Shown piece after piece: positions 43,315-46,211 of a DNA stretch of 64,000 nt. Origin of the DNA: Acidimicrobiia bacterium. GTDB lineage: Bacteria; Actinomycetota; Acidimicrobiia; Acidimicrobiales; SHLQ01. Numbering within the stretch: position 1 is the stretch's first letter; each line of letters opens with the position of its first letter. The position numbers were made by a program, and so were the translations under genes. The stretch is taken from assembly GCA_033344795.1 (NCBI GenBank), contig JAWPMS010000001.1, positions 1,158,992 to 1,222,991 on the forward strand, given 5' to 3'. The notes under the pieces are model-generated. The model saw nothing but the letters and a program-made list of their open reading frames with translations, ran no database searches and was not told where the DNA came from.

Positions 43315-44004
43315 GTGAAGACCGAGCTCCCTGACGCCCCAGGAACTGCCGAACTTCGCGCCCACGGTCACGACAAGCCGCGGTTTCGCGGTTTCATCCA
43401 CCTGCTCGCGTTCTCCAGCGCTCTCACCCTGGCTCCGATTCTCATCGTCGTCACGCCTGGAGTCGCCGACCGTTTCATCATGGCGATCTACGGAATCGCC
43501 ATCGCCGGCCTGTTCGGCGTGAGCGCTCTCTATCACCGCAACGACTGGAGCGATCGAGCAATCGCGATCGTTCGGCGAATCGATCACTCGATGATTTTCG
43601 TCGCGACCGCTGCCACGCACACGCCGATCGCCCTGATTGCGCTCCCGTCGCGCCCTGGCTGGACGCTCTTCTTCATTGTTTGGACCGGCGCGATCGCGGG
43701 CATCGTCGGCCGAGTGTTCTTTCCGAACGCTCCCTACGCGGTGGTCGCCGTGCCATACGTTCTCGTCGGCTGGTCATCGTTGTTCGTCATCAACCACGTG
43801 TGGTCATCGCTCGGTGTCGCCGGCTTCACGTTGCTGGTCGTCGGTGGCGTCCTCTACACCGCGGGCGCTGTGATCTACGCACTGCATCGACCGAACCCGT
43901 GGCCGCGAAGTTTTGGCTATCACGAGATCTTTCACGCGCTGACGGTCGCAGGAGCGGCCTGTCACTACGTCGTGATCGCAATATTCGTCCGCAACCTCAT
44001 TTAG
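43315..44004 (+). CDS. Hemolysin III / PAQR family membrane protein
   Basis: Track ORF 42823..44004 trimmed to the GTG at 43315; KPRFRGFIHLLAF..., ALYHR, RIDHSMIF, HEIFHALTVAGAACHY. Confidence 0.8.
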   Translation: MKTELPDAPGTAELRAHGHDKPRFRGFIHLLAFSSALTLAPILIVVTPGVADRFIMAIYGIAIAGLFGVSALYHRNDWSDRAIAIVRRIDHSMIFVATAATHTPIALIALPSRPGWTLFFIVWTGAIAGIVGRVFFPNAPYAVVAVPYVLVGWSSLFVINHVWSSLGVAGFTLLVVGGVLYTAGAVIYALHRPNPWPRSFGYHEIFHALTVAGAACHYVVIAIFVRNLI

Positions 44005-44028
44005 CGGACCCTGATAGTGGAGTAGGCC

Positions 44029-44562
44029 TCAGGCTGCGGCCAACGCCTCGACGCGTTGTGTCAGACCTTCAAGACCCAACGCCGAGATCAAGGTCTCGGT
44101 TGTGCCATCGTCATTGATGAAGACGAACGCAGGCTGACTCGTCACGCCAAACGTGGCCCAGATCTCGCTGTCCTCATCGGCAACATGATCGAATGCGCCA
44201 ACACCTCGTTCGGACACGAACTCTTCCATGTCTCGAAGATCATCACGACCGGCAACACCAATGATGTTGACCTGATCTCCAAATTTCTGCTGCACTTCTG
44301 CGACCGCAGGAGCTTCCCGGACACAGGTTGGTCACCAGGGCGCCCAGAACCACAACACCGTGTCCTGTCCAGCGAGTGCGCCGAGGTCGAGCTGCCCACC
44401 TGCGACCGTCGGAAACGTTCCCTCGATCGCCGGACCAGCAGGTGCTGATTCAGCGGCTTCGGTTGCCGGTGCAGCGGACTCCGTCGTCGACGCTTCGCTT
44501 CCACACGCTGCGAGCGTGAGGATGAGGGCCGCGGTGGCTGCAGCGGAACGAAAACGTGTCAT
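44029..44562 (-). CDS. TlpA/ResA-like thiol-disulfide oxidoreductase lipoprotein with in-frame UGA (candidate selenocysteine) in a U-P-T-C redox motif
   Basis: Two same-frame ORFs (44332..44640, 44029..44295) joined across the TGA at 44332..44334: LWFWAPW-[TGA]-PTCVREAPAVAEVQQKFGDQVNIIGV; lipobox LTLAAC after the ATG at 44562. Confidence 0.65.
44294..44313 (-). promoter_or_regulatory. Candidate bacterial SECIS hairpin
   Basis: RNA GCUCCUGC-GGUC-GCAGAAGU (one C/A mismatch); the loop starts 27 nt after the UGA. Confidence 0.45.
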
Positions 44563-44666
44563 ATCAATGAGGGTATCGGTCGTCCAAGACCCCTCTTGAT
44601 CGCGTTCGCAAAAGTTCACATCCTCCCATGCCATCAACACGCTGCGTGTTCGCGTAAGTTCGACTT

Positions 44667-46211
44667 ATGCGCAGCCTCCTCACTCGATTCGTAGTACTCG
44701 CCCTCCTCGCGTCCACGCTGTCTTTGGCCGCCCAGACCACGCAGAGCGAGGCGTCTGCTCAGGCGACGTTCAGTACCGAGCAGGCCAAACGCGAGGCGAT
44801 TCACGAGATCTATCAAGATCTCCTCGGGAGACAAGCCCGCCAAGACGAACTCGACCGCTTCACCCCACGACTCGGTGTCGGACAGACCGAAAATGATGTG
44901 CGTGCCCGAGTCCTTGCGTCGCGAGCCTTCTTTCGTGAGGTTGCGGGCAAGACGCGAGCCGGATTTGTCCGCGCGCTCTATCAAGAAGTCGAAGGACGGG
45001 CGCCCACGACCGGCGAGTTGACGCGAGGCAAGCGGCTGCTGTTCCGGAGCACCAAGTCGCTCGTGGGTCGCCGACTCGTTCTGGCCGACCAGGTGTTGAC
45101 CCGCGCCGCCTACAACCCAGACGGATTCGGGGTGACCGAGCTGGTATTGCACAAGAACGCAGCAGGGCTGATCACCCGTTTCGCGTTCGAAGTAGATGCT
45201 CCGATCCGGCCTGACGAGGTCACGCTGACCGTGAGCATCAAAGGACAGATGCAATCGGGCGCTGTCAGAGTGCGAGCGTTCGAAAACATCGTCTCGCTCG
45301 TTCCCGACCAACCCGTTCCCGTCGACGGGAAGATCGTGGGGCTCGTATTCGTGCGGAGCGGTGACACCCTTCGAATCGCTGATCTGTCTACGCCTGCCCG
45401 CCGACTTCCTCCCCGAGTCATACCCGACAACTCCAAGTGGCCCGAACGCGTCTTTGCCGATCAACGGATCGTGGCGTACTACGGCAATCACCTTTCCCCG
45501 TTGCTTGGCGTGCTCGGCGAGACTGGGCCAGAAGGTGCGGTTCCCCGGGTGAAGGCCGCTGCGGCACGATTCGACGAACCCCAGAAGAAGGCAACCGGCG
45601 CCTTTGAGATGATCGTCACCGTCGCGCAAGCGTCGGCTGGTGGGGATGGCAATTACAGCCACCCGTCCAAGCTCGAGGATGTGTCCCGTTGGATCGACGT
45701 CGCCGAACGGGAAGGGTTGTACGTCATCTTGGACATCCAGCCGGGGCGGAGCGACTTTCTCACCGAGACGGTGAGATACCGAGAGCTCCTCCTACGACCG
45801 AACGTGGGTCTGGCCCTTGACCCCGAATGGAGGATGGGACCCACACAACGACCAGGACAGACCGTTGGTTCGGTCACTGCAGCCGAGGTCAACCAGGTCT
45901 CGAAGTGGTTGTCCGACCTCGTGATCGAAAACGATCTTCCGGAAAAGATGTTCATCCTTCATCAGTTCCAGTCACGCATGATCAAGAACCGCGAACAGGT
46001 GGTGGATCGGCCCGGTCTCGCAACGGTCATCCACGCCGACGGCTTCGGGGGACGAGCGATCAAACTGCAGACCTACTCGATCATCAAGGTGGGTCCACCG
46101 CTCTACAACGGGTTCAAACTGTTCATCGACGAGGACACCAGAATCTTCCAACCGCGCGAGGTTCTCGCGTTCGACTCGGTACCCGTACCGGACCTGATCA
46201 CCTACCAGTAG
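44667..46211 (+). CDS. Secreted protein with DUF4214-like N-terminal repeats and uncharacterised C-terminal domain
   Basis: 514 aa; signal peptide; IYQDLLGRQARQDELDRF and LYQEVEGRAPTTGEL repeats; C-terminal domain function not recognised. Confidence 0.6.
   Translation: MRSLLTRFVVLALLASTLSLAAQTTQSEASAQATFSTEQAKREAIHEIYQDLLGRQARQDELDRFTPRLGVGQTENDVRARVLASRAFFREVAGKTRAGFVRALYQEVEGRAPTTGELTRGKRLLFRSTKSLVGRRLVLADQVLTRAAYNPDGFGVTELVLHKNAAGLITRFAFEVDAPIRPDEVTLTVSIKGQMQSGAVRVRAFENIVSLVPDQPVPVDGKIVGLVFVRSGDTLRIADLSTPARRLPPRVIPDNSKWPERVFADQRIVAYYGNHLSPLLGVLGETGPEGAVPRVKAAAARFDEPQKKATGAFEMIVTVAQASAGGDGNYSHPSKLEDVSRWIDVAEREGLYVILDIQPGRSDFLTETVRYRELLLRPNVGLALDPEWRMGPTQRPGQTVGSVTAAEVNQVSKWLSDLVIENDLPEKMFILHQFQSRMIKNREQVVDRPGLATVIHADGFGGRAIKLQTYSIIKVGPPLYNGFKLFIDEDTRIFQPREVLAFDSVPVPDLITYQ

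Follow-up and report, generated by a model that had tools for sequence, protein, structure and literature searches.

Among the described selenoproteins, the closest counterpart to the gene considered here is a thiol-disulfide isomerase-like protein with a UxxC motif (U, selenocysteine, Sec), which Zhang, Fomenko and Gladyshev (2005, PMC1088965) introduced as a new family with four sequences in their study of the Sargasso Sea metagenome. This family stood at five genes in three organisms in 2016 (PMC5029168 Table S3), and reviews of 2022 and 2026 list it under cd02966 (TlpA-like) and pfam13905 (PMC9312934, PMC13188914). Cysteine-containing proteins with a closely similar active site are DsbE and DsbF of Mycobacterium tuberculosis, which are reported to be extracytoplasmic oxidants that fold hirudin in vitro and for which DsbD (Rv2874) or Rv2877c has been proposed as the redox partner (PMC3853704). 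Here we analysed a 64-kb stretch of DNA from an Acidimicrobiia bacterium (GCA_033344795.1, contig JAWPMS010000001.1), referred to as the window, and conclude that positions 44562..44029 of its minus strand are very probably an unannotated gene for an exported, lipid-anchored, 177-residue selenoprotein of the DsbE/DsbF type, in which an internal UGA is read as Sec. This gene and the thiol-disulfide isomerase-like family have in common a TlpA-like thioredoxin fold and a UxxC motif with Sec at the position of the first Cys; both also have widespread Cys homologues and come from marine or environmental sources, and the gene's matches to Thioredoxin_8 and Redoxin agree with the domains listed for that family. 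By these published descriptors, rather than by alignment to the representatives MAK15852.1 and MGB1650493.1, the gene fits the catalogued family. A lipoprotein signal, an affinity to DsbE/DsbF and the anatomy of the selenocysteine insertion sequence (SECIS) are not among the descriptions of the family in the available portions of these papers.

The minus strand from 44640 to 44029 is a single frame whose translation contains one internal stop, a TGA at 44334..44332 (tca on the plus strand). The initial annotation had described two open reading frames (ORFs) in a common frame, separated only by this TGA, and the minus-strand ORFs 44332..44640 and 44029..44295 are indeed so arranged. The frame reads ...GQDTVLWFWAPW, then the internal TGA, then PTCVREAPAVAEVQQKFGDQVNIIGVAGRD...SQPAFVFINDDG...EALAAA and a final stop. 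The complete coding sequence of 177 codons (44029..44562, minus strand) runs from an ATG at 44562..44560, the most plausible start, through the UGA as codon 77 to the genuine terminator, a TGA at 44031..44029 with no SECIS after it. From this ATG, the signal peptide and lipobox MTRFRSAAATAALILTLAAC (44503..44562, minus) end in the L-A-A-C that had been noted at the outset, with the codon of the presumably lipidated Cys at 44505..44503. The segment MTRFRSAAATAALILT-LAAC conforms to the pattern for bacterial lipoproteins, a [LVI][ASTVI][GAS]C lipobox after a signal peptide, and a signal peptide with lipobox is found in at least 84 of 118 orthologues; in others it lies further upstream, before long linkers. 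The UGA at 44332..44334 (minus) occupies the nucleophilic position of a U-P-T-C redox motif (UxxC, 44323..44334, minus). The expectation that gene callers would break up this locus was also correct. The Prokaryotic Genome Annotation Pipeline (PGAP), which chose the same ATG, reports only the 76-residue N-terminal fragment (MDW3176867.1, 'hypothetical protein R8J94_05735', 44332..44562, minus), other callers give products of 100 and 88 residues, and in every assembly examined the gene is split or truncated and the selenoprotein unannotated.

With Cys in place of the internal stop, the protein scores above the Pfam gathering thresholds for AhpC-TSA (1.3e-14), Redoxin (1.6e-13) and Thioredoxin_8 (1e-11). 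Among the 226 homologues from a large protein search, those of full length are about 40-55% identical and read WFWAPWCxxC without exception. Three of the closest database matches are truncated proteins that end in WFWAPW. In every full-length homologue, as in DsbF and DsbE, the UGA column is the first Cys of WCxxC, which bears out the initial placement of the UGA at the nucleophilic Cys. The best matches of solved structure are M. tuberculosis DsbF (3IOS, E = 1.4e-30) and DsbE/MPT53 (1LU4, E = 4.8e-24), both over residues 46-175, and the 3IOS active-site context, WFWAPWCPTC, is identical to that of the window protein except for Cys at the UGA. Structures of the ResA type rank behind these, at only ~1e-9. 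Against the curated NCBIfam models, that for StoA included, the scores fall far under the cut-offs (ResA 52.7 against 170, TlpA 38.9 against 230, DsbE 39.3 against 123, and WAxxUGC, NF041054, 35.7 against 300), and we rejected an assignment to ResA, TlpA, StoA or the WAxxUGC ResA-like family. Because of the structure matches and these sub-cut-off scores, the domain is placed in the TlpA-like superfamily, nearest to the mycobacterial DsbE/DsbF type. The label 'TlpA/ResA-like' in the initial annotation accordingly holds at the level of the superfamily, whereas membership in ResA or TlpA proper does not, since neither cut-off is reached.

The window protein resembles M. tuberculosis DsbF (Rv1677, 3IOS) in its active-site context WFWAPW-x-PTC, and both DsbF and DsbE/MPT53 (Rv2878c, 1LU4) in its QPA cis-Pro loop and in its predicted extracytoplasmic location. 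It differs from them in having Sec rather than Cys, and in lacking a DsbD/CcdA-like gene beside it. With ResA, TlpA, CcmG/DsbE and the WAxxUGC ResA-like proteins it has in common the thioredoxin-like superfamily and a membrane-anchored or exported location, and some of these also have Sec forms. Unlike them, it scores under the family cut-offs, carries U-x-x-C and has no neighbours for cytochrome c biogenesis. The UGC-containing TlpA family (NF041054) is further excluded by motif, as the window protein reads WAPW-U-PTC, that is, U-x-x-C and not U-G-C. A role as a ResA/TlpA/CcmG reductase of cytochrome c maturation was likewise rejected, on the scores and on the absence of ccdA, resBC or ccm among the neighbours.

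The UGA is a conserved feature of this gene. We scanned one genome per prokaryotic species for W-F-W-A-P-W-TGA-x-x-Cys, a pattern that itself requires UxxC, and found at least 119 blocks matching WFWAPW-TGA-xxC and at least about 120 loci from at least about 109 genomes, unlike the three organisms of the 2016 count. Among the matches listed, the carriers are almost all Acidimicrobiia or other Actinomycetota, with the labels Acidimicrobiia, Acidimicrobiales, Ilumatobacter, Microthrix, Poriferisodalis, Aldehydirespiratoraceae, Nitriliruptorales, Euzebya and Actinomycetota. Several carrier genomes are complete chromosomes, including those of Poriferisodalis and Aldehydirespiratoraceae (among the complete carriers are NZ_OZ253573.1, NZ_OZ242344.1, NZ_OZ242363.1, OZ244898.1 and OZ246894.1), and at least ten genomes have two paralogues with the same UGA, which argues against an isolated lesion. 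The dipeptides most frequent between U and C in the Sec forms are PT (29), PA (12) and ST (12). Two contigs that code for such truncated matches and are syntenic with the window at 82-86% identity (L001 and L002; L numbers denote loci) carry TGA-TCG-ACC-TGC (U-S-T-C) at the same site. The initial annotation had allowed that reads might show TGC or TGT at this codon; the same TGA recurs in five further independent assemblies (SRR23272288, SRR23272297 and SRR25654120 from Logan, and GCA_041156745.1 and GCA_041156825.1), each of which contains the exact C-terminal fragment of the window with the gene split alike.

The sequence after the TGA behaves as coding sequence. In all 118 complete genes the frame stays open for 89-106 codons (median 99) beyond it, and the encoded sequence is conserved. 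Over the 100 codons after the UGA, the ratio of nonsynonymous to synonymous substitution rates (dN/dS) is 0.057 against L002, 0.112 against L001 and 0.116 against L025, at a dS of 0.66-1.2. The open, conserved frames and low dN/dS indicate that the downstream half is translated and under purifying selection. At the same time, TGA terminates 25 of the 42 long window ORFs with high GC content at third codon positions, this gene itself and 80 of 118 Sec-form orthologues. UGA is not reassigned here and is an ordinary stop codon; since it is otherwise a stop, its recoding must depend on local context.

A candidate for this local context is the hairpin GCUCCUGC-GGUC-GCAGAAGU (44294..44313, minus), which the initial annotation had proposed at these positions as SECIS-like. 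It folds into a 4-bp upper stem, CUGC/GCAG, a C.A mismatch and a 3-bp lower stem, with the apical loop GGUC at 44302..44305 (minus). Counted from the U of the UGA, the loop occupies +29..+32, so that 26 nt separate it from the UGA. In an ungapped codon register, 95 of 120 unique Sec-form sequences have GGTC at +29..+32, and within these 95 the flanking pairs 28-33, 27-34, 26-35 and 25-36 are 88-95% paired. The upper stem varies by compensation, occurring as CUGC/GCAG, GGUGC/GCAUC, CCUC/GAGG, GCGGC/GCCGC and CCAC/GUGG. In an alignment of 88 sequences, 86.5% of cells are paired in the named structure, and moving the 3' partners by 1-3 columns lowers this to 27-58%; double-sided changes number 51 against 11.6 +/- 3.1 in shuffles, and the covariation score is 0.316 against 0.152, a value that none of 500 shuffles reached. 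The initial annotation had made its case depend on homologues with both UGA and hairpin, and many orthologues keep both, with compensatory changes and frozen synonymous sites.

These frozen sites are most evident in the 53 unique sequences that encode P-A-V-A at the hairpin. They use CCT in 52 cases, GCG in 53, GTC in 53 and GCA in 52, although these codons make up only 11%, 34%, 46% and 15%, respectively, of the codons for their own amino acids in the long ORFs of the window. No such constraint is seen in the adjoining Ala codon, which lies outside the upper stem (GCC 25, GCG 18, GCT 8). Sequences without GGTC at +29 have a shifted hairpin with a loop containing GGU, GUU or GGC. About a fifth of the sequences (~25, mostly of the VAQVAR type) follow a second register, in which the hairpin lies ~9 nt further downstream, as in GCGC-AGGUG-GCGC, GCUCA-GGC-UGAGC and GCAC-AGGUU-GUGC (for example L019, L026, L037, L043, L074, L082, L085 and L087). 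Here the loops are AGGUG, GGGUC or AGGUU, and the stems again covary (GCGC/GCGC, GCUC/GAGC, GCAC/GUGC). In L033, L060 and L117 an identical CUGC-GGUC-GCAG module has moved by exactly three codons (9 nt), and this shift of the whole module argues that selection acts on the RNA rather than on the peptide.

A further control comes from homologues that have the same motif with TGY for TGA, of which 118 unique metagenome sequences were compared with the 120 Sec forms. All four upper-stem pairs at the hairpin position occur in none of the 118 Cys forms, as against 83 of the Sec forms; GGTC at +29 occurs in 20 against 95, and the tripeptide A-V-A in 2 against 75. This control indicates that the hairpin is specific to the UGA genes. 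The two forms are separated only by the specific position and loop of the hairpin, as a generic test for any hairpin with a stem of at least 5 bp and an early loop G did not separate them (63/120 Sec forms, 49/118 Cys forms). The putative element also appears to dictate the local peptide sequence. On these comparative sequence grounds we consider read-through of the UGA, and the presence of a functional RNA element behind it, to be established.

In loop, stem and spacing the hairpin agrees with the published model of the bacterial SECIS (bSECIS). The bSECISearch criteria, as quoted in the 2026 review (PMC13188914), include a threshold of minimum free energy and ask for 3-9 nt in the apical loop and 4-16 bp in the upper stem, for G at loop position one or two, usually with G or U next, and for 16-37 nt separating the UGA from the loop. 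The window hairpin lies within these limits in its loop (4 nt), stem (4 bp), GG loop start and spacing (26 nt). The initial annotation had named GGUC as the apical loop of the Escherichia coli fdhF SECIS, and the genome sequence (NC_000913.3) confirms it, reading TGA...GGTTGCA-GGTC-TGCACC with the loop at +21. Like the fdhF SECIS, the window element is a small hairpin inside the coding sequence just after the UGA, with a 4-bp upper stem and a GGUC loop. The two differ in the position of the loop (+29 in the window, +21 in fdhF) and in their stem sequences. Beneath the upper stem, the window hairpin has a C.A mismatch, whereas the fdhF SECIS has a bulged U. A further difference is that part of the family of the window gene uses the second register ~9 nt downstream.

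Several observations weigh against reading this gene as a selenoprotein gene with a SECIS. Folded alone, the window hairpin is thermodynamically ordinary (-6.9 kcal/mol, z = -0.8 against shuffles); the minimal fdhF element, folded alike, reaches -4.2 kcal/mol. In a 50-nt context the minimum-energy fold of RNAfold differs from the hairpin (z = 0.13), and RNAalifold, at a weak consensus energy of -0.9 kcal/mol, recovers no more of the hairpin than the three pairs at its centre. No Rfam model matches the hairpin in a search of the window or in a permissive search of 44000..44600. Neither the window nor its flanks yielded another selenoprotein gene with a comparable element, and tRNA-Sec, selA, selB and selD were not found in the window or in ~1 Mb of flanking sequence. 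Support for the putative SECIS is, then, comparative and not energetic. As to the machinery, ARAGORN and Rfam recovered only a tRNA-Ile in the window, and E. coli SelA, SelB and SelD, compared by tblastn with the window and every fetched locus, gave nothing real; three weak selB matches are BipA/TypA GTPases. The permissive Rfam matches over 44000..44600, snoZ247 and isrG, are spurious, and a scan of ~1 Mb for an in-frame TGA with a GGU-loop hairpin gave eight unconvincing candidates.

The lineage-level evidence on the Sec machinery is favourable. Ilumatobacter coccineus, I. nonamiensis and Candidatus Microthrix parvicella are recorded as SelD+/SelA+/SelB+ in Table S1 of Peng et al. 2016 (PMC5029168), and Tables S1 and S2 of that source give them 15, 10 and 7 selenoproteins, respectively. 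Metagenome-assembled genomes (MAGs) of Ilumatobacter and Microthrix carry the UGA form of the gene. In Actinomarina, of the same class, selA, selB, selC and selD are reported in all 84 complete genomes (bioRxiv 10.64898/2026.04.03.716425), and sponge-symbiont bins are enriched in SelA and SelB (PMC5649159).

The comparative data establish read-through and an RNA element and not the identity of the inserted residue, which leaves room for a read-through that does not involve SelB. In such a case a near-cognate or suppressor tRNA would insert Trp, Cys, Arg or Gly, the hairpin would merely slow the ribosome or hinder release factor 2, and the product would be a full-length protein without selenium; that the Sec machinery was not found in the window and its ~1 Mb flanks would be in keeping with this. 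We regard this explanation as very unlikely. The UGA falls exactly in the catalytic Cys column of CxxC, as is characteristic of Sec/Cys pairs, and with any residue other than Sec or Cys at this column the enzyme would be inactive. A hairpin serving as a roadblock would need no fixed loop sequence, yet the GGUC loop is invariant and the same as the SelB-binding loop of E. coli fdhF. In addition, the element fits the bSECIS consensus, and the carrier genera are documented users of Sec with unusually large selenoproteomes.

Two further explanations dispense with read-through altogether. The locus could encode two polypeptides, an exported 76-residue N-terminal piece and a separately initiated 88-residue C-terminal piece, perhaps forming a split thioredoxin fold, and a GTG (44295) 12 codons past the TGA is indeed used as a start by gene callers. 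However, the 12 codons from TGA to GTG show conservation at the protein level, the resolving Cys and an E-A-P motif among them, and orthologues differ in where the first start codon after the TGA lies. The C-terminal piece, moreover, would lack a signal peptide and have no way to reach the exported N-terminal half, and the active site would be left without its nucleophile; this arrangement seems to us most improbable. Alternatively, a TGC or TGT codon for Cys could have mutated to TGA, or been miscalled as such, with the downstream half decaying, and the splitting of the locus by the callers (76 or 100 residues plus 88), together with the name 'hypothetical protein' that PGAP gives the first piece, speaks for this. 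Decay or error is effectively refuted by the recurrence of the TGA in the five further assemblies and in the at least about 120 loci of at least about 109 genomes, by the open downstream frame in 118 of 118 complete genes (89-106 codons), by a dN/dS of 0.06-0.12 at dS up to 1.2, and by a UGA-specific hairpin maintained through compensatory changes. A Sec-encoding UGA in an intact gene remains our preferred reading.

If the gene is decoded as a selenoprotein gene, SelB carrying Sec-tRNA(Sec) would bind the GGUC hairpin and insert Sec at codon 77. We infer SelB and Sec-tRNA(Sec) to be the decoding agents, with SelB delivering Sec to the UGA in the ribosomal A site in place of release factor 2. 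At the second TGA, which ends the gene and has no hairpin, translation would terminate. The preprotein would then be exported and, as predicted from its lipobox, lipidated at Cys20 through Lgt/LspA processing; because of the signal peptide and lipobox, the mature protein is expected to be anchored on the outer face of the cytoplasmic membrane. It would consist, in order, of the lipid anchor, a flexible linker and a thioredoxin fold of the DsbE/DsbF type with U-P-T-C replacing C-P-T-C. Selenium incorporated at the UGA would make Sec the attacking nucleophile and Cys80 the resolving residue, so that U-P-T-C could take part in thiol-disulfide (selenenylsulfide) exchange, its presumed substrates being secreted or envelope proteins. 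It might act as an oxidant, the activity reported for DsbE and DsbF of M. tuberculosis, or else as a reductant.

More speculatively, the Sec form of the DsbE/DsbF type may be a hallmark of the Acidimicrobiia and of the Nitriliruptoria, whose genomes would often have two copies. It would then be a lipid-anchored extracytoplasmic selenoenzyme of monoderm bacteria, using a selenenylsulfide for oxidative folding or for redox defence of the envelope, with a SECIS fixed enough to dictate A-V-A (GCG-GUC-GCA) and present in two registers. We put this forward tentatively and consider it a doubtful generalisation; if it holds, the family would offer a natural system for the co-evolution of SelB spacing tolerance and protein sequence.

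What is new in these findings is modest but concrete, namely the much wider distribution, the lipoprotein signal, the affinity to DsbE/DsbF, the well-supported two-register SECIS and the systematic mis-annotation. The practical point is annotation, as the same mis-annotation affects at least about 109 species-level genomes of Acidimicrobiia and other Actinomycetota. A selenoprotein family counted in three organisms in 2016 is extended to a broad clade and tied to the structurally characterised mycobacterial DsbE and DsbF. In addition, the alignment of actinobacterial SECIS elements (~120 sequences in two registers), which no Rfam model detects, could seed a covariance model. Knowledge of the mechanism of selenocysteine decoding is unchanged by the finding.

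Towards the C terminus, Pro144 lies in SQPAF (44131..44133, minus) and aligns with QQPAY of DsbF and WQPAF of DsbE. We take it to be at the position of the conserved cis-proline of the thioredoxin fold that faces the active site.

The immediate neighbours of the selenoprotein gene in the window include a divergently transcribed gene for a secreted protein of 514 residues and a convergent gene of the HlyIII family. Genes for two citrate synthases, G6PD, MGMT, Ada/AlkA and an ATP-binding cassette (ABC) transporter make up the rest. No universal neighbour was seen across the at least about 120 loci, and none of them has an adjacent CcdA, DsbD or VKOR gene. In ~21 Sec-form loci (for example L095 and L047), lpd (dihydrolipoamide dehydrogenase) lies divergently upstream, frequently accompanied by an E2 acyltransferase gene, and 7 of the loci also have a gene for lipoate synthesis. 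The lpd and E2 neighbours look like clade-level synteny. The lpd neighbourhood recalls the mycobacterial antioxidant link of Lpd, DlaT and AhpD, which appears in the reference list of PMC1088965, though it may be clade synteny only. The divergent gene (44667..46211, plus strand) encodes 514 residues with an N-terminal signal peptide, MRSLLTRFVVLALLASTLSLAAQ..., and no Pfam match, and it is kept beside the selenoprotein gene in the close relatives L001, L245, L246 and L248.

Some minor observations concern the opposite strand of the hairpin and the individual carriers. The snoZ247 match, a eukaryotic snoRNA model, lies at 44254..44333 on the plus strand, opposite the SECIS, and with 21.6 bits against a gathering threshold of 38 (E = 0.089) is almost certainly a chance match. 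The locus L003 (positions 1213-1818 of JBFPEK010008558.1, GCA_041156885.1) is 100% identical to the window upstream of the TGA, but over the 100 codons downstream the protein identity is only 51%, and a gene for a Penicillinase_R/BlaI-like repressor follows in place of HlyIII. Either the assembly is chimeric, with its joint at the conserved WFWAPW-TGA-SECIS block, or paralogues have recombined there. A few carriers bear non-actinobacterial labels, namely Chthoniobacterales (L025), Gammaproteobacteria (L053), Acidobacteria (L073) and Myxococcota (L109). The protein of L025 is 81% identical to that of the window after the UGA, and a single study is the source of L025 and L053, both in '.orig' bins; all four look like mis-binned Acidimicrobiia contigs rather than horizontal transfer.

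Between the lipidated Cys and the UGA, the window protein has a linker rich in Ala, Glu, Thr and Pro and then the beta-strands that open the thioredoxin fold, as far as WFWAPW (44335..44502, minus; delimited from the sequence and the 3IOS alignment, which starts at residue 47). Linker length and composition differ widely among orthologues. Sponge-associated Acidimicrobiia (L013, L022, L031, L036, L041, L072, L113 and others, from Candidatus Poriferisodalis and related MAGs) have a linker expanded by long repeats of low complexity and highly acidic composition (DDDGREDDDD and EEVEEIEEIEE, for example), and their genomes often have two Sec-form paralogues (L041 and L088, L022 and L115, L068 and L072).

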